A stretch of 64,000 nt of DNA from Clostridia bacterium (GCA_045615805.1 JAZLFN010000020.1:8712-72711), one strand, 5' to 3'; counted from the stretch's first letter, positions 1,081 to 43,325 are shown. Numbers and translations: made by a program. The notes: generated by a model not told the origin, from the sequence alone.

Positions 1081-1225
1081 ACAAATGCCTTACATTTTTT
1101 GTACAAAACAGCAAAGCGTATTTACATACAATAAAAAGGTGTTATAATAGACATATAATGTAAATATGAGGTTTTATCGCCTAAATTTACAGCGAAAGAT
1201 TTTTACCGGAGGAGGCATCGGATAG

Positions 1226-2491
1226 ATGGCGACGGCGGATAACCGTAATAATAATTCCTCTGCTCGAAAAAGACGAAGTAATTTCAAAAAAATTCGTCTT
1301 GTTATATTTGTCCCGATTGCCATTGTGGTTGTGTATTTTCTTGCGGCAATAATTGTGGGTATTGCAAGCAATGTTTCCACAACTGTTGCGTTAAACGGAA
1401 AAATATCGGAAAGCTTCCGTGCAAGCGGTTATGTGTTTCGGGAGGCGGAGGTTGTTAATGCACCTTCGGGAGGCTTCTTTGAATGTATGGTAAGCGAGGG
1501 TGAAAAAGTAAAAAAAGGTCAGATTGTTGCTTATATATATCAAAATGAGCCCGGTTCCGAGCAAATAGCGGAGATTAAAAAAGTTATTAAAGAGATGCGC
1601 CTTACAGGAGCGGACAAAGATACTCGATTATACGAAGGTAATGCCAAGGGAGAAACTGTTTTATCGAGCTTGTGCCGTGACCTTTCGGATAAACGAAAAG
1701 AGCATAATTTGACATATGCAAGAGAAAAAAAGGAAGAAATATATATAGCGGCAGACAGCAAGACGGAAAATGCAGAGGAGTCAAAGAACAGACTTGTTCG
1801 TCTTACCAATGAGTTGACATCGCTGAATTCAAGGCTTGGCAGTTGTGTATGTATATATGCTCCGTCAAGCGGTGTGTTCAGTTCAAGGATTGACGGATAT
1901 GAAGAAAAGCTTTCGTATTCGGCAGCAGATAACTTGACAGTAGAATATCTGGAATCTGTTGAAAGCGAAGAGGTGTCGGGGCAAAATACCGTAGAGCAGG
2001 GAAAACCTCTTTGCAAAATAATAAACAATTATAAATGGCGTTTCGGTGCTGTGGTTGATGAAAAAACCGCAGAAAATATAACGGAAGGGCAAAATGTTAC
2101 TCTCCGGTTTTTCGATGTTTCAAACATTGAGGTAAAAGGAACTGTTCAGAAGATAACCAAAGGAAACGGAAAGTGTGCAATTGTTATAAACACAAACAGG
2201 TATGTTGACGGAATTTATTCGGAAAGCAAGATGAATGCCGAAGTTGTCACTATGAGCGTTGAAGGTATAAAGCTTCCCATTACCGCTCTTCATGTAAAGG
2301 ATGGAGAAACAGGCGTTTTTGTTTTGCGATTGGGAGCTGCAAAGTTTGCCCCTGTTAATGTGAAATATCAGAATGATGAATGGACTATTGTAAGTCCTTC
2401 AAATGATGCCACCGGCTCATCAAGACTTCAGATATATGATGAGGTGGTTACGGACGGTAAGAATATTACCGAGGGAAAAATAATCAGATAG
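1226..2491 (+). CDS. Membrane-anchored HlyD/membrane-fusion-like protein, function uncertain
   Basis: Basic N-terminus plus one TM helix (IRLVIFVPIAIVVVYFLAAIIVGIA), a charged coiled-coil-like middle and a beta-rich C-terminus. GGAGG lies about 10 nt upstream of the ATG. Sits upstream of the yggS-sepF block. Confidence 0.5.
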   Translation: MATADNRNNNSSARKRRSNFKKIRLVIFVPIAIVVVYFLAAIIVGIASNVSTTVALNGKISESFRASGYVFREAEVVNAPSGGFFECMVSEGEKVKKGQIVAYIYQNEPGSEQIAEIKKVIKEMRLTGADKDTRLYEGNAKGETVLSSLCRDLSDKRKEHNLTYAREKKEEIYIAADSKTENAEESKNRLVRLTNELTSLNSRLGSCVCIYAPSSGVFSSRIDGYEEKLSYSAADNLTVEYLESVESEEVSGQNTVEQGKPLCKIINNYKWRFGAVVDEKTAENITEGQNVTLRFFDVSNIEVKGTVQKITKGNGKCAIVINTNRYVDGIYSESKMNAEVVTMSVEGIKLPITALHVKDGETGVFVLRLGAAKFAPVNVKYQNDEWTIVSPSNDATGSSRLQIYDEVVTDGKNITEGKIIR

Positions 2492-3700: not shown

Positions 3701-4482
3701 TAAAAAAAGATAAATTCTTTCGGGCAGATAAACAGGATAAAGACGACAGGCTCATACTTGCAAGAGCCGAGGATAATCTGTTTTCAGCCCGCAAGAATTT
3801 TTGTGTAAAGACACTTGGGTTTTTAAATCCGCACCAAAGGGCATATCTTTTGAATAATCTTGAAATCGGGACGGATACAGAGGTAATCTATGACGGCGGA
3901 TATGATGATGCGGAACGGGTTTTGATTGTTGCCGTGCCCGAGATCTCGTTTTATGACAGAGATGAATTTATATCCGTTGTAAAAATAACCGGCAGAGATA
4001 TGGAAACTCTTAATCACAGGGATTATCTCGGAAGCTTAATGGGGCTTGGTATTACCCGTGAAAATATTGGGGATATAATAACATCCGATGACGGTGCATC
4101 TGTTTTTGTAAAGCCCGAAATTGCTTCATATATTGATTCAAATCTTGAAAAAATCGGAAGGCATGGGGTTAAAACCGTTATTTGCCCATGCTCCGAGGCA
4201 GATATTGCTCCGCCTGCTTTTAAAGATATAAACGGAACTGTTTCATCGCTTCGCCTTGATGCAGTTTTGTCTTTTGCATTGGGAATATCAAGAAAGTCTG
4301 CGTCTGATTTGATAAATTCGGAGTTGGTTATGGTTAACTTCAGACAAGCTTCATCTCAGACTTTAAATCTTGAAGAAAATGATTTGATTTCCGCAAGAGG
4401 TTACGGCAGGTTCAGGGTTAAATCAATAGGTACGCTTACACGAAAAGGACGAATTTCGATAACGGTTTCCAAATTTTTATAA
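3697..4482 (+). CDS. ylmH: YlmH-like S4-domain RNA-binding protein
   Basis: C-terminal S4-like segment LRLDAVLSFALGISRKSASDLI. ATGA overlap with the sepF stop. Conserved position before divIVA. Confidence 0.8.
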   Translation: MIKKDKFFRADKQDKDDRLILARAEDNLFSARKNFCVKTLGFLNPHQRAYLLNNLEIGTDTEVIYDGGYDDAERVLIVAVPEISFYDRDEFISVVKITGRDMETLNHRDYLGSLMGLGITRENIGDIITSDDGASVFVKPEIASYIDSNLEKIGRHGVKTVICPCSEADIAPPAFKDINGTVSSLRLDAVLSFALGISRKSASDLINSELVMVNFRQASSQTLNLEENDLISARGYGRFRVKSIGTLTRKGRISITVSKFL

Positions 4483-6626: not shown

Positions 6627-8003
6627 ATGAAAAGGATTACAGCAATAATAACAGGCTTGATAATGATACTTTCATGTATGTCGTATACTGCATTTGCAAA
6701 AACAGAGTATACGGTTAATGTCCATAAAAATCAGGAGCAGGAACAACTTGACACCTCCGTTACAGAAAAGACGGAATCGGTAACTGTCAAGGAAGAAAGG
6801 GAAGTAGTGCCTAAAGAGACTGTCAAAGATTCAATTAGTGCAGAAAAGCCTGCGGTGACGGACAATGTTACTTTTAATAATGTAAAAATCAACTTAAGAA
6901 TGATACCGAGAATGCAGGTGATTGATTCATTTGCAAAGCTTGGACTTTATGATGAAAAAGGTGTATTGCTGGGCGAAGATTCTCAATGGGTCGGAGGAAT
7001 CACTCAAAATCTTACATTTGATTTTGAGGTTCCGGAATACAAGCCGGGAAAGACATTTGTTTTAAAGGTTGAGGACGGCTTAAGTTATGTAAAATATTAT
7101 GACGATTTATTCAGAAAAGATGAAAAGATATCCCTTGTTACATACGGATATAAAAATGAAGCAGGTGAGTATGTAAAGGGTAATGAATTTCATCTGGACG
7201 CTTGCCCCGAGTATGAGCATGTAGTTATTGTGTATTTGGAAGGGGTAATGCAAAACTATAACCCAAAGGCTGTTTTGTATGAAAGTTGTGCTATGGTTCC
7301 CGTAAGACAGGTTGCGAACGCTATGGGACTTGATGTCAGATATGATGAAAAGTATCAAAGCGTTGTGTGCGAATTGGGAAATTTACAGACGATATTTAAT
7401 ATCGGAACAAATTATGCCACATTTATGGGTAAAGATACATTTATGAATCAAAAGTGTATTTTGCTTAATGATACCGTATATATTCCGGTTCGAGCTATTG
7501 CCGAGGCGTTTGGATGCTCTGTTGAGGCGATTGATTTCGAGGACCATATTGATGTGTGTATAGGTGAAAGCCCTGTTTTAAAAGATTATTTTGCACAGCT
7601 TCCCATAAATTCAATGAATGTGTCAAGTCAAACCGATTATATGGTTTGGGTTGACAAATCGGATTATGAGGTTCGCGTATATAAGGGCTCAAAAAATAAA
7701 TGGCGTCCCATCGCAACATTTCCCTGTGCAATAGGGGCACCGGATACACCTACGATAACCGGAAGCTTTGAGTATCAGTATAAGGCACCTTTATGGGATT
7801 ATAATACTTATTATGTAGGTCCTTGCCTTGTTTTCTACGGCGGATATGCTATTCATTCAACCTTGCTTTATTACAGCGGTGCGCCGTATGACAACAGAGT
7901 CGGAGTAAAAATTTCTCACGGATGCGTCAGAATCAGAAAAGATAATATTGATTGGCTTGCTTCAATTCTTCCCTTGAAGAGCCGAATTTTCGTTACTGAG
8001 TAA
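6627..8003 (+). CDS. Secreted L,D-transpeptidase (YkuD) domain protein with a copper-amine-oxidase-N-like domain
   Basis: Signal peptide present. VPVRQVANAMGLDV...IPVRAIAEAFG repeats. C-terminal catalytic motif SHGCVRI. Confidence 0.8.
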   Translation: MKRITAIITGLIMILSCMSYTAFAKTEYTVNVHKNQEQEQLDTSVTEKTESVTVKEEREVVPKETVKDSISAEKPAVTDNVTFNNVKINLRMIPRMQVIDSFAKLGLYDEKGVLLGEDSQWVGGITQNLTFDFEVPEYKPGKTFVLKVEDGLSYVKYYDDLFRKDEKISLVTYGYKNEAGEYVKGNEFHLDACPEYEHVVIVYLEGVMQNYNPKAVLYESCAMVPVRQVANAMGLDVRYDEKYQSVVCELGNLQTIFNIGTNYATFMGKDTFMNQKCILLNDTVYIPVRAIAEAFGCSVEAIDFEDHIDVCIGESPVLKDYFAQLPINSMNVSSQTDYMVWVDKSDYEVRVYKGSKNKWRPIATFPCAIGAPDTPTITGSFEYQYKAPLWDYNTYYVGPCLVFYGGYAIHSTLLYYSGAPYDNRVGVKISHGCVRIRKDNIDWLASILPLKSRIFVTE

Positions 8004-8013
8004 GAGTTTAAAG

Positions 8014-8055
8014 CCGATGCAGAAGATTAAAAGTTTTCTGTATCGGTTTTGTTTT
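8014..8055 (+). terminator. Rho-independent terminator
   Basis: CCGATGCAGAA pairs with TTCTGTATCGG (one G-U), followed by TTTTGTTTT. Confidence 0.7.
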
Positions 8056-8139
8056 GTAAAAATGTATGGACATTATGATTTTGTTATGGTAAAATAAACG
8101 AGATAGACAATCGTATATTAATTGCGGAGGCGGTAAAAA

Positions 8140-9048
8140 ATGAAACATTTGCTTGGCATTAAAGAGTTATCAAAAGAAGAGATAATACATATTCTTGATA
8201 TGGCAGAGAAAATGAAGCATGAAGTTTTGGAAGGCGGCAAAAAGAATAATATGCTGTCGGGAAAAAGCATAATAACTCTTTTTTATGAAAACAGCACAAG
8301 GACAAGGCTGTCTTTTGAACTTGCTTCAAAATATTTAGGGGCAACCGCGGCAAATATTACAGCTTCCGGAAGCAGTGTCGCAAAAGGGGAAACCCTTGAA
8401 GATACGGGAAAAACCATCGATGAAATGGGTGCGGATGCAGTAATAGTCAGACATTCCTCATCCGGTGCGCCTCATATGCTGTCCCGCTGTACAAAAGCAT
8501 CTGTTATAAATGCCGGTGACGGAATGAATGAGCATCCTACCCAGGCATTGCTTGATTTTATGACAATGCGTGAAAAATACGGAGAGTTTAAAGGGTTAAA
8601 GGTTTCTATTGTAGGAGATGTTAAACACAGCAGGGTTGCCAGAAGCAATATATACGGTCTTAAAAAGCTGGGTGCGGATATAACGGTTTGTGCTCCTTCA
8701 ACCCTTATGCCTGCCGATATTGAAAAGTTCGGAGTAAAGCTTACATATGATGCGGATGCCGCCGTTCATAACGCTGATGTTGTTATGGGACTTCGGATTC
8801 AGCTTGAACGACAAAAGAGCGGATTATTTCCGTCGGTCAGGGAATATCACAAGCTTTTCGGAATAGATTCAAGGCGTGTTGCGCTTGCAAAACCCGACGC
8901 AATAGTTATGCATCCCGGTCCTGTTAACAGAGGGGTTGAGCTTTCGGCAGATGTTGCGGACGGTACGCAATCTGTAATCGGCGGACAGGTAACAAACGGA
9001 GTGTGTGTCAGAATGGCAATTCTCAGCTTGCTTACACAAGCTGATTGA
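8140..9048 (+). CDS. pyrB: Aspartate carbamoyltransferase catalytic subunit
   Basis: Motifs ENSTRTRLSFE, HPTQALLD and HPGPVNRG. Confidence 0.95.
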   Translation: MKHLLGIKELSKEEIIHILDMAEKMKHEVLEGGKKNNMLSGKSIITLFYENSTRTRLSFELASKYLGATAANITASGSSVAKGETLEDTGKTIDEMGADAVIVRHSSSGAPHMLSRCTKASVINAGDGMNEHPTQALLDFMTMREKYGEFKGLKVSIVGDVKHSRVARSNIYGLKKLGADITVCAPSTLMPADIEKFGVKLTYDADAAVHNADVVMGLRIQLERQKSGLFPSVREYHKLFGIDSRRVALAKPDAIVMHPGPVNRGVELSADVADGTQSVIGGQVTNGVCVRMAILSLLTQAD

Positions 9049-9076
9049 GGAATTTTGCGAAAGGAGGCAGATACAA

Positions 9077-10351
9077 ATGAAACAGATTATAAAAAACGGA
9101 TATGTGGTTAATCCTTCAAAGTGTTTTTCCGGATATGCGGATATACTTATAAATTACGGTGTTATTGAGCGTGTTGCTGAAAATATTAACGACTATGATG
9201 CCAAGGTGATTGATGCAAAGGGAATGATTGTAGCTCCCGGACTTGTAGACCTCCATGTTCATTTCAGAGAGCCCGGATATGAGCATAAAGAAACCATACT
9301 TACGGGAAGCCGTGCGGCAGTAAAGGGTGGAGTTACATCAGTTTTGTGTATGCCAAATACCAATCCTCCCATAGACAATGCCGCTTTGGTTGAATATGTT
9401 GTAAATACAGGAAAAAAAGCCGGTCTTATAAATGTTATGACAACAGGATGTATTACAAAAGGTCAGAAGGGAGAAGAAATTTCCGAAATGGCAGAGCTTA
9501 AAGCTCATGGGGCATCTGCCTTTTCCGATGACGGAAGACCTGTAAGCTCGGCTATGATTTTAAGACGTGCCCTTGAATATGCGAATATGCTTGATATGCC
9601 CATTATGTCACATAGCGAGGACTTATCTCTTGTTGACGGCGGAAGTATGAACGAAGGTTATATGTCAACCTATCTGGGTTTAAGAGGAATTCCTAAATCT
9701 GCGGAAAGTGCGGCGGTCAGCCGTGACATTCTCCTTGCGGAGGAATTAGGAGCGAGAATCCATATATGTCATATAAGCACAAGAAATTCAATTGAGGCTG
9801 TCCGTGCCGCAAAGAAAAGAGGAGCAAAGGTTACAGCCGAAACCGCACCTCATTATTTTACCCTTACCGATAAAATGTGCGACGGTTTTAATACAAATGC
9901 GAAAATGAATCCGCCTCTTCGTGACGAGGAGGATGTTGAAGCTGTTATTGAGGGCTTGGCTGACGGAACAATTGATGCAATTGCAACAGACCATGCTCCC
10001 CATCACATTGACGATAAGAGAATAGAATTTGAAATGGCGGCAAACGGTATTGTAGGACTTGAAACCTCTCTTGCGTTGGGATATACATATCTTGTTAAAA
10101 CAAACAAGCTGACGGTTATGCAGCTTATTGACAGAATGAGTACAAAGCCTGCTGAAATAATAGGATGTAAAAGGGGAACGCTTAACGAGGGTTCTCCTGC
10201 GGATATAGTGATATTTGATGCCAACGAGGAATTTGTCGTTGACGATAAAAATTTTGAAACGAAGGGTAAAAATTCCCCTTATATCGGGATGAAGTTATTC
10301 GGAAAGGTTAAAAGAACTATATTTGGCGGAAAAACAGTTTACATGGATTAA
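9077..10351 (+). CDS. pyrC: Dihydroorotase
   Basis: Motifs DLHVHFREPG and ATDHAPH. Start moved to ATG 9077 (MKQIIKNG), preceded by AAGGAGG. Confidence 0.93.
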   Translation: MKQIIKNGYVVNPSKCFSGYADILINYGVIERVAENINDYDAKVIDAKGMIVAPGLVDLHVHFREPGYEHKETILTGSRAAVKGGVTSVLCMPNTNPPIDNAALVEYVVNTGKKAGLINVMTTGCITKGQKGEEISEMAELKAHGASAFSDDGRPVSSAMILRRALEYANMLDMPIMSHSEDLSLVDGGSMNEGYMSTYLGLRGIPKSAESAAVSRDILLAEELGARIHICHISTRNSIEAVRAAKKRGAKVTAETAPHYFTLTDKMCDGFNTNAKMNPPLRDEEDVEAVIEGLADGTIDAIATDHAPHHIDDKRIEFEMAANGIVGLETSLALGYTYLVKTNKLTVMQLIDRMSTKPAEIIGCKRGTLNEGSPADIVIFDANEEFVVDDKNFETKGKNSPYIGMKLFGKVKRTIFGGKTVYMD

Positions 10352-34550: not shown

Positions 34551-35753
34551 TTAATTTTCAAGCATTTTTTGTATAAGTGTATAACCCTGTTCGATTTTTA
34601 TGCCTGTTTTTTCAGCTTCCTTTTCGGTGTAGCCTGAGGCTTTGGAACTTATTTCGTCATCGCTTTTGTACAAAACAAAGGGTACGGGGTCGGATGTATG
34701 AGTCATTTTGTCAAGTGGCGTGGGATGGTCGGGCATAATAAGCATACGAAAATCAATGCCGTTGTCACGAAGATACTTTAAGACGGGAGCAACAATTTTT
34801 TGGTCAATAAGCTCTATTGTTTTTACTTTGTTGTCAATTTCGTGGCGGTGACCTGCTTCATCCGCACCTTCAAGGTGAATATAAATAAAATTCTTTCCGC
34901 TTTTAAGTCCGTCAATTGCCGCCTGTGCCTTTCCGTCAAAGTTTGTGGAAACCGTTCCCGTTGCGTTTTCTATCTCAGCAACCTCAAGACCTGCAAGACG
35001 ACCGATTCCTTTTATAAGGTCAACGGCGGATATTACAACTCCGTCAAGACCGAATTTGTCCTTGTATGTGTCAAGGTTGGGCTTTGTTCCGTTTCCCCAA
35101 ATCCAAAGAGAATTGGCGGGATGAAGTCCTCTTTTAATTCTGTCAAGGTTTACGGGATGGTCCTTTAATATGTCATAGCTTTTCTTCATAAGTGAAAGAA
35201 TAACTTTATCTTCGGGAAGATAAGCACCGACTTTTTTGCCGGATATATCATGGGGAGGGGTGAGAGAAAATTTGTTTTCTCTGTTGTGCCATACAAGAAG
35301 ATGACGGTAGCTTACGCCTCCGAAGAATTCGTATTCATCCGTTGATAAGGCTTCGTTTATTGTCTGAATAAGCTTGTGGGATTCCTCGGTTGTGATTTCA
35401 TCCGAGCTATAGTCAACCATTGTTTTGTCGGCGTAATCTTCTTCATCGGAAAGGGTGACAAGATTTGCACGGAAGGTTGTATCGGTAAGAGTAAGGGGTA
35501 CGCCGATGGAAGCCGCCTCAAGAGGTGACCTTCCGGTATAATATTTAAGTGGGTCGTAGCCGAATACCGCGAGGTTTGCAACATCACTTCCGGGAGGAAG
35601 GGTTTGCGGAACGGTTTTGACAATTCCCACATATGATTTTTTGGCAAGCTCGTCAATGCTTGGCTTGTGTGCGGCTTCAAGAGGTGTTTTGTTTCCCAAT
35701 TCGGAAACGGGAGTATCTGCCGCACCGTCTGTTAAAACTACGATGTATTTCAT
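34551..35753 (-). CDS. Cofactor-independent phosphoglycerate mutase family protein (ApgM-like metalloenzyme)
   Basis: N-terminus MKYIVVLTDGAADTP, then HLEGADEAGH and MPDHPTP metal-site motifs. Confidence 0.78.
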   Translation of the reverse strand: MKYIVVLTDGAADTPVSELGNKTPLEAAHKPSIDELAKKSYVGIVKTVPQTLPPGSDVANLAVFGYDPLKYYTGRSPLEAASIGVPLTLTDTTFRANLVTLSDEEDYADKTMVDYSSDEITTEESHKLIQTINEALSTDEYEFFGGVSYRHLLVWHNRENKFSLTPPHDISGKKVGAYLPEDKVILSLMKKSYDILKDHPVNLDRIKRGLHPANSLWIWGNGTKPNLDTYKDKFGLDGVVISAVDLIKGIGRLAGLEVAEIENATGTVSTNFDGKAQAAIDGLKSGKNFIYIHLEGADEAGHRHEIDNKVKTIELIDQKIVAPVLKYLRDNGIDFRMLIMPDHPTPLDKMTHTSDPVPFVLYKSDDEISSKASGYTEKEAEKTGIKIEQGYTLIQKMLEN

Positions 35754-39708: not shown

Positions 39709-39736
39709 TTGCATATTTATTTTTTTATGATATAAT
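39709..39736 (+). promoter_or_regulatory. SigmaA promoter with extended -10 upstream of the NifU-like gene
   Basis: TTGCAT (39709-39714), 16-nt spacer, TGaTATAAT (-10 at 39731-39736). Confidence 0.6.
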
Positions 39737-39828
39737 TATAGTTGGTATAAGATTAGGAGATGAAATAAACTCCGTGAATTTTATAAATATTTAAGCTTTA
39801 TTACATGATAAACGAAAGGAGTATTTGA

Positions 39829-40521
39829 ATGAAGTATTCAAGCGAAGTAGAAAAGATGTGCCCTCTCGCAAAGGGAGCATATCACGGACCTGCTCCCATT
39901 CCTCAGGAAGGTAAATGGACGCAGGCAAAGGAAATCACAGACATTTCGGGACTTACCCACGGTGTTGGTTGGTGTGCACCTCAGCAGGGTGCTTGTAAGC
40001 TTACCCTTAATGTAAAGGACGGCGTTATTGAGGAGGCATTGGTTGAAACCTTGGGCTGCAGCGGTATGACTCATTCGGCTGCTATGGCGTCTGAAATCTT
40101 AATCGGAAAAACATTGTTGGAGGCTTTAAACACAGACCTTGTATGTGACGCAATCAACACAGCAATGAGAGAATTGTTCCTCCAGATTGTATACGGTCGT
40201 ACACAGACTGCATTTTCGGAAGACGGACTTCCTATCGGTGCAGGTCTTGAGGACTTGGGTAAAGGCTTAAGAAGTCAGGTTGGTACAACATACGCCACAA
40301 AGGCAAAGGGACCGAGATATCTGGAGCTTGCAGAAGGTTATATTACAGATGTTGCAGTTGACAAGGATAATCAGATTATCGGTTACAAGTTTGTTCACCT
40401 CGGCAAGATGATGGAAATGATTAAAAACGGAACAGATGCAAACGAGGCTTTGAAGAAGGCAAGCGGACAGTACGGCAGAGTTGATGATGCTGATAAGCTC
40501 ATTGACCCGAGATGCGAATAG
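39829..40521 (+). CDS. NifU/IscU-N-like Fe-S scaffold-type protein with an extra C-terminal domain
   Basis: Cys pattern GWCAP / GACKL / LGCSGMTHSAAMASEIL. AAAGGAG RBS. Confidence 0.7.
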   Translation: MKYSSEVEKMCPLAKGAYHGPAPIPQEGKWTQAKEITDISGLTHGVGWCAPQQGACKLTLNVKDGVIEEALVETLGCSGMTHSAAMASEILIGKTLLEALNTDLVCDAINTAMRELFLQIVYGRTQTAFSEDGLPIGAGLEDLGKGLRSQVGTTYATKAKGPRYLELAEGYITDVAVDKDNQIIGYKFVHLGKMMEMIKNGTDANEALKKASGQYGRVDDADKLIDPRCE

Positions 40522-40534
40522 GAGGTTATGTAAA

Positions 40535-41536
40535 ATGGCATTATTTGAAAGCTATGAAAGAAGAATTGACCAAATCAACGCAGAACTTTTAAAGCACGGC
40601 ATCTCATCTATTGAAGAGGCAAAAAAGATTTGCGATGATAAGGGAATAGACGTATACAAAATGGTAAAGGATATTCAGCCTATCTGTTTTGAAAATGCAT
40701 GCTGGGCATACATTGTAGGTGCGGCCATTGCAATCAAAGAAGGTTGTACGGTTGCGGCTGACGCAGCCGAAAAAATCGGTATCGGACTTCAGTCGTTTTG
40801 TATTCCGGGTTCAGTTGCGGATGACAGAAAGGTTGGCTTGGGACACGGCAATTTAGGTGCAAGACTTTTGCGTGAAGAAACAAAGTGCTTTGCATTCCTC
40901 GCAGGTCACGAATCATTTGCTGCCGCAGAAGGCGCAATCGGACTTGCTAAAAGTGCAAACAAGGCAAGGAAAGAAGATTTGCGTGTTATCTTAAACGGAC
41001 TCGGTAAGGATGCAGCGCAGATTATATCAAGAATAAACGGATTTACATATGTACAAACTCAGTTTGATTACTTTACCGGCGAAGTTAAGGTTGTAAAGGA
41101 AACCAAATATTCAGACGGTGAAAGGTCAAAGGTTCGTTGCTACGGTGCGGATGATGTTCGTGAAGGTGTTGCAATTATGCATTTAGAAGGAGTTGATGTA
41201 TCTATTACAGGTAACTCAACTAACCCCACACGCTTCCAGCACCCCGTTGCAGGCACATATAAAAAGGAATGTATCGAGCAGGGTAAAAAGTACTTCTCTG
41301 TTGCATCCGGCGGCGGTACGGGAAGAACACTTCATCCCGATAATATGGCAGCCGGTCCTGCTTCATATGGTATGACAGACACTATGGGTAGGATGCATTC
41401 TGATGCTCAGTTTGCAGGTTCTTCTTCCGTACCTGCTCATGTTGAAATGATGGGCTTAATCGGTGCGGGCAATAACCCTATGGTTGGTATGACAGTTGCG
41501 GTTGCAGTTGCAATCGAAGAAGCAATGAAAAAATAA
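40535..41536 (+). CDS. GGGtGRT-motif family protein (function unknown)
   Basis: Literal motif SGGGTGRTLHPDN. Start at ATG 40535, 8 nt after TAGGAGG. Confidence 0.8.
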   Translation: MALFESYERRIDQINAELLKHGISSIEEAKKICDDKGIDVYKMVKDIQPICFENACWAYIVGAAIAIKEGCTVAADAAEKIGIGLQSFCIPGSVADDRKVGLGHGNLGARLLREETKCFAFLAGHESFAAAEGAIGLAKSANKARKEDLRVILNGLGKDAAQIISRINGFTYVQTQFDYFTGEVKVVKETKYSDGERSKVRCYGADDVREGVAIMHLEGVDVSITGNSTNPTRFQHPVAGTYKKECIEQGKKYFSVASGGGTGRTLHPDNMAAGPASYGMTDTMGRMHSDAQFAGSSSVPAHVEMMGLIGAGNNPMVGMTVAVAVAIEEAMKK

Positions 41537-41539
41537 AAT

Positions 41540-41571
41540 AAAATGGACTTGTGTAAATACAAGTCCATTTT
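41540..41571 (+). terminator. AT-rich hairpin (possible partial terminator/processing site) between the GGGtGRT and PurF-like genes
   Basis: AAAATGGACTTGT-GTAAAT-ACAAGTCCATTTT (13-bp perfect stem), followed by ATATT. Confidence 0.45.
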
Positions 41572-41604
41572 ATATTCAGTTTTTAAGAAAGGCAGTGTTA
41601 ATTT

Positions 41605-43026
41605 ATGGGCGGATTTTTTGGAGTGGTAAGCAGAAGAAGTGCCATTTCCGACGTTTTTTTCGGCACGGATTATCATTCACATCTGGGAACAAGGAGAGCA
41701 GGAGTTGTATCTTTTAATGAAAAAGGTTTTCAAAGAGAAATTCACAGCATTGAAAATTCTCCCTTTCGTACCAAATTTGATAAGGTGTTTGAGGAATTGC
41801 ACGGAAATACAGCAGTGGGATGTATAACTGATTTTGATCCGCAGCCTCTTTTGATACGCTCTAATTTTGGAAATTACGCAATTTGTGTAATCGGTGTTAT
41901 AAATAATGCAGATGAGTTAGTAAATGAACAGCTTAAAAACGGATATAGTCAGTTTGGTGCAATGAGCGGCGGAAAGGTAAACAGAGTTGAGCTTGCTTCT
42001 GCAATCATCAATCAAAAGGATAATATTGAAGAGGGAATTAAAAATCTTCAAAATAAAATAGACGGTTCCGCTACCGTTATAATTATTACGGAAAAGGGTT
42101 CGTTGATTGTGGCAAGAGATAAGCTTGGACGCACTCCTGTTGTTGTGGGGAAAGATGCGGACGGATTTTGTGTTTCATTTGAGTCCTTTGCTTTTGAAAA
42201 GCTTGGTTATGAGCGTGAGTACGAGCTTGGACCTGCCGAAATTTGTGAAATAACATCGAATGGAATAACCCAACTTTCTCATCCGGGAGAGGAAATGAAA
42301 ATTTGTTCATTTTTATGGTCTTATTACGGATTTTCAACTTCGGAATATGAGGGCGTAAATGTGGAAGTGATGAGATACAGAAACGGTAAGATTATGGCAG
42401 AGAACGATAAAAAGTTAAAAAATGCAGAGGGAATAGATTATGTAGGAGGTGTTCCCGATTCGGGCACGCCCCATGCCATTGGTTATTCTCACGGCTGCCA
42501 AGCACCATTTGCAAGACCGTTTATCAAATATACTCCCACATGGGCAAGAAGCTTTATGCCTTCAAATCAGGATGTACGAAATAAGGTTGCAAAAATGAAG
42601 CAGATTCCCGTTTGTGAGTTGATAAAAGATAAGAAGCTCTTGCTTGTTGATGATTCAATTGTGAGAGGTACTCAGCTTAAAGAAACGGTTGATTTTCTCT
42701 ATAACAACGGTGCAAAAGAAGTTCATATGCGTTCTGCTTGTCCTCCCATTATGTACGGTTGTAAGTATCTTGATTTTTCGCGGTCAAGCTCTGAAATGGA
42801 GCTTATTTCAAGAAGGGTTATTGCCGAGCTTGAGGGCGAAGAGGGAGAAAAGCATATGGACGAATATGCTGACGGAGCGACGGAGAGAGGAAAGGCATTA
42901 AGAAAAGCCATTTGCGAAAAGTTTAATTTTGCTTCTCTTGAATTCCAAAGCCTTGACGGAATGGTAGAGGCTATAGGACTTCCGAAGTGTAAGCTTTGTA
43001 CATATTGCTGGAACGGAAAAGAATGA
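41605..43026 (+). CDS. Amidophosphoribosyltransferase-like protein lacking the N-terminal Cys nucleophile
   Basis: N-terminus MGGFFGVV (PurF has MCG...). PRPP loop LLLVDDSIVRGTQ, CPPIMYGCKY, and terminal CKLCTYCW. Confidence 0.8.
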   Translation: MGGFFGVVSRRSAISDVFFGTDYHSHLGTRRAGVVSFNEKGFQREIHSIENSPFRTKFDKVFEELHGNTAVGCITDFDPQPLLIRSNFGNYAICVIGVINNADELVNEQLKNGYSQFGAMSGGKVNRVELASAIINQKDNIEEGIKNLQNKIDGSATVIIITEKGSLIVARDKLGRTPVVVGKDADGFCVSFESFAFEKLGYEREYELGPAEICEITSNGITQLSHPGEEMKICSFLWSYYGFSTSEYEGVNVEVMRYRNGKIMAENDKKLKNAEGIDYVGGVPDSGTPHAIGYSHGCQAPFARPFIKYTPTWARSFMPSNQDVRNKVAKMKQIPVCELIKDKKLLLVDDSIVRGTQLKETVDFLYNNGAKEVHMRSACPPIMYGCKYLDFSRSSSEMELISRRVIAELEGEEGEKHMDEYADGATERGKALRKAICEKFNFASLEFQSLDGMVEAIGLPKCKLCTYCWNGKE

Positions 43027-43028
43027 TT

Positions 43029-43056
43029 AAAAGCGGTTGCTCCGGCAGCCGCTTTT
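43029..43056 (+). terminator. Rho-independent terminator
   Basis: AAGCGGTTGC-TCCG-GCAGCCGCTT (one G-U), followed by TTTT. Confidence 0.85.
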
Positions 43057-43063
43057 CAAATGA

Positions 43064-43084
43064 AAAATGGAAAATGGAAAATGG
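43064..43084. repeat. Tandem heptamer AAAATGG x3 (plus a degenerate fourth unit to about 43094)
   Basis: Read directly: AAAATGGAAAATGGAAAATGGAAAATTATGG. Confidence 0.9.
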
Positions 43085-43094
43085 AAAATTATGG

Positions 43095-43325
43095 TTCAAA
43101 TTCGCCGTGGCGTAGCCTCCTCTTATTTATTAAGGGGAGGGGCGATGGTTCCCGGTGGCACTTGGCTCCCCTGTGTAAGGGGAGCTGTCACGGAGTGGCT
43201 GAAGGGTTGTCATGCCGTTTCCGCAATTTTCGGACGGGCTCAGCAAGCGGAGCCCCTACGACGAACCACGCGGAACATCCGGTAGGGGCGCCCCTTGGGA
43301 CGCCTATTAGATGCACGGTGCAAAA
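43095..43325. other. GC-rich cluster of hairpins (candidate structured ncRNA or REP-like intergenic element)
   Basis: 134 of 220 nt are G+C over 43101-43320 by hand count. Stems at 43116-43140, 43164-43186, 43215-43237, 43236-43255 and 43252-43289. Lies between convergent genes. Confidence 0.5.

Follow-up and report, generated by a model that had tools for sequence, protein, structure and literature searches.

A conserved NifU-like/GGGtGRT gene pair of mainly anaerobic bacteria is in some genomes associated with fluoride riboswitches and lower-glycolysis genes and may act at the phosphoglycerate/phosphoenolpyruvate step

Do three adjacent genes encoding a NifU-like, a GGGtGRT-family and a PurF-like protein in a Clostridia genome form one biochemical system, or does only part of the group belong together, and what might that part do? 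The genes lie on the plus strand of a 64,000-nucleotide stretch of DNA from a Clostridia bacterium (GCA_045615805.1 JAZLFN010000020.1:8712-72711), referred to here as the window. The first, g1 (39829–40521), encodes a NifU-like protein of 230 aa with the motifs GWCAP, GACKL and LGCSGMTHSAAMAS; the second, g2 (40535–41536), starts with the ATG at 40535, 13 nt after the g1 stop codon, and encodes a 333 aa protein in which SGGGTGRTLHPDN occupies residues 258–270; the third, g3 (41605–43026), encodes a 473 aa protein of the PurF type. The initial annotation of this locus gave the gene order, motifs and spacing as we find them, and read the trio as a self-contained iron–sulphur (Fe–S)-dependent system that uses phosphoribosyl pyrophosphate (PRPP) outside purine synthesis. 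We find instead that the conserved unit is a free-standing two-gene operon, g1–g2, and that g3 is an ordinary, though cysteine-less, purF that stands beside the pair by chance, outside the conserved unit. Our current explanation, to which we give a probability of about one in two as a whole, is that the pair encodes a two-subunit Fe–S enzyme acting at the phosphoglycerate/phosphoenolpyruvate (PEP) step, and that g3 is a separate purF.

The gene neighbourhood was examined in 80 loci from species genomes, found with an alignment of divergent GGGtGRT proteins and spanning Bacillota, Bacteroidota, Spirochaetota, Verrucomicrobiota, Actinomycetota, Myxococcota, Desulfobacterota and Geobacter. A full-length g1 homologue (73–91 % identical, 222–233 aa) lies immediately 5' of g2 on the same strand in 69 of the 70 loci whose upstream DNA is long enough to show it, representing at least seven phyla, the sole exception being a fragmentary g1 in one metagenome-assembled genome (MAG). 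By contrast, of the 64 loci that extend 2 kb or more downstream, none has a PurF-like homologue of g3 adjoining the pair, and the gene is absent even beside the pairs of loci L009–L013, whose g2 is 94–95 % identical to that of the window. The statement that GGGtGRT genes are often found next to NifU-like and PurF-like genes therefore stands for the former and fails for the latter. Nor does any other third gene recur: when the open reading frames (ORFs) of the 80 loci were clustered, the commonest family was seen in 7/80, and none of the 189 Pfam families matched among the 135 nearest downstream ORFs occurred in more than four of them. The pair stands alone, followed by an AraC regulator, in Monoglobus pectinilyticus (g2 95 % identical), and alone also in Bacteroides thetaiotaomicron (BT0173-74). 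There were no natural g1–g2 fusions among the matches, the overlong ones being assembly chimeras of g2 with itself. The spacer between the two genes is 13–30 nt in other phyla and about 190 nt in Bacteroidales (L117 5800–5991, Parabacteroides distasonis; also L044), where RefSeq annotates a small hypothetical ORF of 63 aa within it.

The two proteins have changed very little. Across phyla, g2 is 77–95 % and g1 73–91 % identical to the window protein, and identity remains at about 80 % between members from Bacteroidota, Bacillota, Spirochaetota, Verrucomicrobiota and Proteobacteria. Recent horizontal transfer was considered as a cause of this cross-phylum identity and rejected, because synonymous divergence (dS) is saturated and the G+C content at third codon positions follows that of the host, from 0.14 to 0.87. 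The dS of g2 is at least 1.5 even against a 94 %-identical relative, with non-synonymous divergence of 0.06–0.22, and it was too saturated to be calculated for most of the farther comparisons, including every other phylum but one. Between the same two genomes, g2 is 95 % identical and g3/PurF 71 %. The substitution pattern indicates that the pair is under extreme purifying selection. A GGGtGRT protein from a Methanobacteriaceae MAG (P0492) is 83 % identical to the window g2, which suggests that this family has been transferred into gut methanogens.

As first proposed, g2 belongs to the GGGtGRT family (Pfam PF14057): its residues 4–330 match positions 1–327 of the profile with 646.9 bits (gathering threshold 27), and the literal motif is present. 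It is a typical full-length member of a family whose proteins measure about 329–345 aa and have a NifU-named neighbour (for example BT0173/BT0174 of B. thetaiotaomicron), and it is 78–84 % identical to the members from Bacteroidales; the window pair is thus an ordinary representative of a catalogued family, the purF gene downstream being the only trait that distinguishes it from the others. In an alignment of 55 sequences the GGGTGRT motif is invariant, as are five histidines, a single cysteine (C202) and the glycine-rich loops TGNST, SGGGTGRTxHPD, GMTD..GR.HS, GSSSVP.HV and GNNP. These loops probably bind an anionic (phosphorylated) substrate, and g2 is presumed to be the catalytic or substrate-binding subunit. 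An AlphaFold2 (AF2) model built from a 55-sequence alignment (pLDDT 82.8, pTM 0.85) has a helical N-terminal domain and a Rossmann-like alpha/beta domain; its low-confidence parts, residues 228–233, 260–281 (with GGGTGRT) and 298–306, are the most conserved loops, as one would expect if their folding depended on a partner or cofactor. A sequence search of solved structures found no relative of g2, and a profile search found only a ferritin (E 0.79), which we take as noise. Foldseek comparison of the model with the PDB gave no match at E≤0.001 (TM≤0.28), the best, at E 0.02, being generic Rossmann-like pieces. No NCBIfam model and no Pfam family besides GGGtGRT matched g2; there was no nucleotide-binding motif recognizable with hidden Markov models (HMMs), no Enolase_N or Enolase_C domain in the Pfam search and no enolase among the Foldseek matches.

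The likeness of g1 to IscU/NifU N-terminal domains proved to be partial. The cysteine pattern on which it was based is present, yet the match to Pfam NifU_N (PF01592) is marginal (22.5 bits, cut-off 22; residues 55–113, 59 of 127 profile positions), and g1 failed all NCBIfam equivalogue models for IscU, NifU and SufU, scoring 18–29 bits against cut-offs of 92–273 (TIGR03419, 28.8 versus 187.9; TIGR01999, 22.7 versus 192.4; TIGR01994, 20.2 versus 92.5). RefSeq names genes of this type 'nitrogen-fixing protein NifU'. The best relatives of g1 among solved structures are indeed IscU/NifU scaffolds, at E 3.7e-4 or worse and over about 55 residues; residues 50–110 align to the IscU core, the likeness taking in the second cysteine with its GC(S/G) motif and the next helix. 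Four cysteines, C49, C56, C77 and C106, do not vary among 21 sequences drawn from several phyla and from the divergent clade described below. C77 and C106 can be matched to IscU cysteines 2 and 3, whereas IscU cysteine 1 aligns to Q53, so that the first two cysteines of g1 flank the IscU position. Unlike the scaffolds, which measure about 125–150 aa, g1 has additional N- and C-terminal parts that fit no family, its C-terminal half of about 115 residues having no match in any other family, and separate g1 and g2 segments searched against Pfam at E≤10 gave no further family. A single-sequence AF2 model of g1 was not usable (pLDDT 41). Judged from its IscU-like core and the cysteines, g1 is most likely an Fe–S-binding subunit that would carry its cluster on the four invariant residues.

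Two kinds of genomic context bear on what such a protein might do, and the first is the fluoride riboswitch (Rfam RF01734, gathering threshold 34 bits). We scanned 17 loci with Rfam, confirmed further riboswitches with Rfam and a model built here and, separately, searched metagenomes for a riboswitch core with the g1 motif GWCAPQQGAC behind it. In L067 a riboswitch of 57.6 bits, its aptamer overlapped by a terminator, lies 47 nt 5' of g1 in the operon g1-g2-DUF190-crcB-crcB-HAD. The metagenome scan gave 11 loci, eight of which were confirmed by Rfam (42–53 bits, 40–50 nt 5' of the g1 start); these eight come from at least five lineages, and g2 follows wherever the contig is long enough. The cultured Vibrio sp. 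THAF191d has a 60.7-bit riboswitch 5' of a stand-alone g1–g2 operon. At least ten loci (including L067, L101, L102, L104, L105, L106, L108, L110, L111 and L115) thus have the riboswitch in the leader 5' of the pair, at a distance of 40–90 nt from the g1 start over the confirmed loci, and in L101, L104 and L106 it controls the pair alone. Other loci place the pair among fluoride genes: the order is riboswitch-PAP2-HAD-PAP2-crcB-DUF190-sulfatase-like-g1-g2 in L048 and crcB-DUF190-g1-g2 in a Geobacter locus (L077), a crcB, DUF190 or riboswitch cluster adjoins the pair in L108, and just upstream of the pair in Persicobacter psychrovividus lie a riboswitch and, after it, the gene for a CLC-like transporter (named by eye). 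In a Myxococcales MAG (L059) a riboswitch, a dynamin-family GTPase and enolase lie 3.4 kb upstream of the pair, of which g1 is apparently truncated. That locus has two divergent back-to-back riboswitches, at 1207–1276 (minus strand) and 1403–1470 (plus strand), one of which leads into the GTPase and enolase genes. L104 has a second fluoride riboswitch (3962–4025, 51.5 bits) about 760 nt 3' of g2, beyond which no plus-strand ORF of 70 aa or longer is obvious.

As members of the fluoride-riboswitch regulon, reviews give genes for exporters, antiporters, pyrophosphatase, enolase, HAD phosphatases and formate hydrogen lyase, as well as mutS. The classic target of fluoride is enolase, whose gene is often under riboswitch control, as that of pyrophosphatase frequently is (PMC11139923). 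These reviews do not name the pair, and we found no paper that links the fluoride riboswitch with NifU and no relevant one that brings together fluoride, NifU and enolase, although an older listing may exist.

The second context is lower glycolysis. In L058 and L051, which belong to one lineage, the gene order is pgk-tpiA-gpmI-g1-g2, with gaps of 34–59 nt, and in L052, from an independent lineage (GC 0.30), it is gapA-pgk-...-gpmI-X-g1-g2. In the gap-pgk-tpi-pgm-eno cluster of Firmicutes the slot after gpmI is canonically that of enolase. A divergent GGGtGRT clade (52–58 % identity) retains a g1-like gene overlapping its GGGtGRT gene, and three of its lineages have, in the same cluster, a bona fide ApgM (517 bits, cut-off 489) and a protein of the His_Phos_1 (dPGM) family; in two of these lineages there is also a helix–turn–helix regulator, and one has GpmI as well (656 bits). 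A protein of 317–332 aa, anchored in the membrane at its N terminus, is in every case encoded directly after the GGGtGRT gene of the divergent clade (L093 7005–7958; L096 6992–7972; L098 2067–3065; L099 2839–3837); it is absent from main-clade loci and matches no Pfam (E≤10) or NCBIfam model. An ApgM-family gene is also found in the window, at 34551–35753 on the minus strand about 4 kb upstream of the pair, and another in L086 (9784–11004, minus strand), both within 1–4 kb of the pair. Both fall into the subfamily NF003242/TIGR02535 (508 and 537 bits), labelled 'cofactor-independent phosphoglycerate mutase / proposed homoserine kinase', and we did not count them as evidence for glycolysis since the subfamily is of ambiguous function and the genes are on the opposite strand.

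Published work on the family consists of omics listings, and papers of 2024 and 2025 state that its function is unknown; the initial annotation's description of GGGtGRT as a named family with no assigned function holds for the literature up to 2026. In B. thetaiotaomicron the two-gene operon BT0173-74 is down 11- to 12.8-fold under iron deficiency (PMC10434189), and in Clostridium pasteurianum the corresponding protein goes up with iron (PMC5395762). A 2024 study reported GGGtGRT as highly expressed in vivo in distantly related gut anaerobes, and rumen metaproteomes detected it beside GAPDH, PPDK and PEPCK. Transposon insertions in BT0173-74 were obtained, together with insertions in pfkA, in a screen for loss of the glucose-dependent repression of the regulator Cur.

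From these observations we hypothesize that g1 and g2 form a two-subunit protein in which an IscU-like Fe–S subunit is joined to the GGGtGRT subunit, the loops of the latter holding a phosphorylated substrate in a fold unlike solved structures. The phosphoglycerate/PEP step is proposed because the pair is regulated like enolase, occupies the slot after gpmI and has a sister clade associated with phosphoglycerate mutases. The Fe–S enzyme would perform or bypass the conversion of 2-phosphoglycerate to PEP that is otherwise the step of the Mg-dependent, fluoride-sensitive enolase; it would be labile to oxygen and would have no fluoride-sensitive Mg centre. Expression would be constitutive at a high level in gut and rumen anaerobes and induced through the riboswitch in environmental bacteria. 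This assignment to the enolase step also draws on the iron dependence of the pair, its occurrence mainly in anaerobes, its dispensability where enolase exists, its abundance at the level of glycolytic enzymes, and the fact that its loss weakly mimics a pfkA lesion. A more specific version, which is possible but tentative, makes the pair a non-homologous, Fe–S-dependent and fluoride-insensitive replacement of enolase, an 'anaerobic enolase'. To our knowledge, no organism is generally considered to possess an analogue of enolase.

The comparison with enolase is one of position and regulation. Like enolase, the pair is found in the post-gpmI slot (L051, L052 and L058), is under the same kind of RF01734 control, is highly abundant and evolves slowly; unlike enolase, to which it has no sequence or fold similarity, it is rich in cysteine and regulated by iron, and would have two subunits and no dependence on Mg. 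Functional kinship between the two is at this stage our hypothesis only. A second comparison is with the oxygen-labile [4Fe–4S] hydro-lyases that have stable but non-homologous counterparts, such as class I fumarase (FumA/B, as against FumC) and serine dehydratase (SdaAA/SdaAB). The pair likewise occurs mainly in anaerobes, shows iron-dependent expression and can be dispensed with where the cell has a metal-independent or Mg enzyme, and the Firmicutes serine dehydratase is likewise encoded by two genes for a small and a large subunit. The pair has, however, no homology to the SDH_alpha/beta, Fumerase or aconitase families, and these hydro-lyases use three cysteine ligands whereas g1 has four invariant cysteines.

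Several points weigh against the enolase-step proposal. The four cysteines could ligate a cluster fully, which would fit electron transfer better than an open-iron, Lewis-acid hydro-lyase, and the g2 model, of low confidence in its most conserved loops, is unlike any known dehydratase or enolase. The glycolytic synteny is confined to 3/80 main-clade loci from two lineages; direct fluoride control was seen in just 1/70 genome loci, the remaining cases coming from the targeted search; and the fluoride regulon is heterogeneous, so that membership alone names no reaction. The window pair itself has neither a riboswitch (no RF01734-type riboswitch was found anywhere in the window with the fluoride-riboswitch model, and the g1 leader matched no Rfam family at E≤1) nor glycolytic neighbours, and looks like the constitutive form with a strong promoter that gut Clostridia typically have. 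Mutants in BT0173-74 grow normally on glucose, and their Roc effect is modest, only 2-fold. Finally, in Collinsella aerofaciens the pair directly follows sufB-sufD-sufS-sufU, and in Parabacteroides it lies among genes for TlpA, OsmC and a nitroreductase, which are redox-stress genes.

One alternative is that the pair is an Fe–S enzyme of the same metabolic node that catalyses a different reaction. It might be a ferredoxin-linked oxidoreductase whose substrate is 3-phosphoglycerate, glycerate or PEP, a lyase that eliminates phosphate and clears accumulated phosphoglycerates, or a fluoride-insensitive stand-in for some other fluoride-sensitive phosphoryl-transfer enzyme such as a pyrophosphatase or mutase. 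This alternative shares all of the context evidence set out above; the four invariant cysteines would suit an electron-transfer cluster, the Rossmann-like domain of the g2 model is in keeping with it, and pyrophosphatase, too, is a frequent gene of the fluoride riboswitch. We nevertheless regard it as unlikely: the slot that the pair fills after gpmI in gap-pgk-tpi-gpmI clusters is canonically that of enolase, no ferredoxin or flavoprotein is linked to the pair among the neighbours in the 80 loci, and g2, as already noted, has no nucleotide-binding motif that HMMs recognize.

Alternatively, the pair may be a scaffold, carrier or repair system for Fe–S clusters, with g1 as scaffold and g2 as its partner, serving under metal or oxidative stress, including that caused by fluoride. 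The similarity of g1 to NifU_N/IscU, the neighbourhoods in Collinsella and Parabacteroides just mentioned and the strong iron regulation of the pair all speak for such a role, and fluoride stress is known to disturb metal homeostasis and to trigger oxidative-stress responses (PMC11139923). The extreme conservation of the pair can be read in the same way. IscU-type scaffolds are also extremely conserved. The role is nonetheless doubtful, given that g1 scores far below the NCBIfam scaffold cut-offs, aligns over only some 55 residues and spaces its cysteines unlike IscU; that there is no cysteine desulfurase or other assembly gene among the neighbours of the pair in the 80 loci, SUF adjacency having been seen once, in Collinsella; and that abundance at the level of a glycolytic enzyme would be unusual for an assembly factor. 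It would also leave the order pgk-tpi-gpmI-g1-g2 and the phosphoglycerate-mutase cluster of the divergent clade unexplained.

The original idea that g1, g2 and g3 form one Fe–S-containing, PRPP-using system outside purine synthesis, or that the pair delivers ammonia or an Fe–S cluster to PurF, drew on the adjacency of three same-strand genes behind one clear promoter-like site, on the absence of other pur genes from the window and on a PurF that has [4Fe–4S] ligands and no glutaminase nucleophile, but we reject it as highly improbable because of the 0/64 co-occurrence and the position of g3 orthologues in pur operons, to which may be added a strong hairpin between g2 and g3 and the pair's standing alone in B. 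thetaiotaomicron and Monoglobus.

What, then, is g3? That it is amidophosphoribosyltransferase-like was correctly recognized at the outset: it aligns end to end with Bacillus subtilis PurF (1ao0, E 1.2e-37), retains the PRPP loop VDDSIVRGT, with LLLVDDSIVRGTQ aligning to VVMVDDSIVRGTT, and conserves GVPDSG. The [4Fe–4S] ligands are also there, equivalents of Cys236 and Cys382 being kept and a C-terminal CxxCxxC being present. Its score against TIGR01134 is 163.1 bits, below the cut-off of 350. The protein differs from the B. subtilis-type [4Fe–4S] enzyme (1ao0/1gph; TIGR01134), with which it shares the PRPP loop, GVPDSG, the cluster cysteines and the operon slot of its orthologues, in the glutaminase site: it starts MGGFFG instead of MCG, G2 is aligned to the catalytic Cys1, and other glutaminase residues of 1ao0 are replaced (R26 by L, N101 by I, D127 by G). 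The replacement of Cys1 by glycine and of R26, N101 and D127 extends across the whole g3 clade, and all of the 120 best homologues (68–73 % identical, 473–475 aa) start MGG[FY]FG.

In three independent lineages (L005-8, L089, L091-92; 8001–9425) the closest homologues of g3 stand at the place of purF in complete pur operons, in the order purE-(purC)-[g3-like]-purM-purN-IMP cyclohydrolase-purH-purD-purL, and neither g1 nor g2 is present in the g3-homologue loci. On contig Ga0307249_10000441, where g2 is 95 % identical to that of the window, the pair lies at about 32–43 kb and a pur operon with the g3 orthologue at about 135–152 kb, some 100 kb apart. The view that g3 is unlikely to serve purine synthesis has accordingly to be abandoned. 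Judged by its homologues, g3 is the purF of its lineage and would make phosphoribosylamine from PRPP for purine synthesis; as the window holds no other pur gene, purF has been relocated behind the pair in this genome. Mutants of PurF in Cys1 keep only their NH3-dependent activity. Because the same residue is replaced in g3, its glutaminase site is probably dead and free ammonia probably serves as the nitrogen donor. We found no report of a cysteine-less PurF in the literature. A whole clade of Clostridia thus appears to build its purines with a PurF incapable of glutamine hydrolysis, which implies ammonia-dependent purine synthesis in ammonia-rich habitats.

It is interesting to consider what a two-subunit Fe–S enzyme at the phosphoglycerate/PEP step would mean. 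In anaerobes of gut, rumen and sediment, few proteins are as conserved or as strongly expressed as those of the pair, and we did not find the three leads described here, namely the fluoride regulon, the enolase slot and the sister clade with three phosphoglycerate-mutase families, in the literature accessible to us. The context evidence turns a conserved hypothetical protein into a directly testable hypothesis in cultured, genetically tractable hosts (B. thetaiotaomicron and Vibrio sp. THAF191d). If it is true, central carbon metabolism would gain a new enzyme, and the fluoride tolerance of anaerobes would be partly explained, a matter of importance for oral microbiology and for the bioengineering of defluorination.

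The signals around the genes in the window agree with a unit that ends after g2. A plausible promoter of the sigma-70 type is predicted 5' of g1 from its match to the sequence TTGCAT (39709–39714), a 16-nt spacer and TGaTATAAT (39728–39736), on the plus strand and followed by an untranslated leader of about 85 nt. The promoter that had been proposed there is present as a sequence, but its -35 element is weak, agreeing with TTGACA at 3/6 positions only, and hence it does not appear in a consensus promoter scan. Between g2 and g3, at 41538–41573 on the plus strand, there is a terminator-like site consisting of a perfect 16-bp hairpin followed by UAUUCAGUUUUU; it is AT-rich, has a U-run after the stem, ends 31 nt 5' of the g3 start and has a folding free energy (dG) of -19.5 kcal/mol (z -6.9), with 0/200 shuffles as stable. 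This hairpin is likely to be an intrinsic terminator or attenuator that closes the g1–g2 unit. It is as strong as the hairpin after g3 and was overlooked when the three genes were read as one unit. The latter (43029–43056, plus strand), described initially as a clean terminator, is a stable structure (dG -19.8 kcal/mol, z -4.5) with a 12-bp stem including an A/U extension and the loop UCCG, but the UUUUC that follows gives it a T-run of only 4. Transcription of g3 in the window may come either from read-through or from its own promoter; a weak promoter-like sequence, TTGTGT-16-TATATT, lies inside the g2–g3 hairpin about 30 nt 5' of the g3 start.

Two further features were noted downstream of g3. 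Immediately 3' of its terminator, at 43059–43090, there is a short tandem run, AAATGGAAAATGGAAAATGGAAAAT. The AT-rich spacer between that terminator and a divergent AraC gene contains, at 43100–43325, an island some 230 nt long that is rich in G+C (about 0.6) and has several perfect hairpins; it is single-copy in the window and has no Rfam match at E≤1. Its minimum free energy is -104.6 (z -3.2) on the plus strand and -92.3 (z -3.3) on the minus strand, and it could be an unannotated structured RNA or the remnant of a mobile element.

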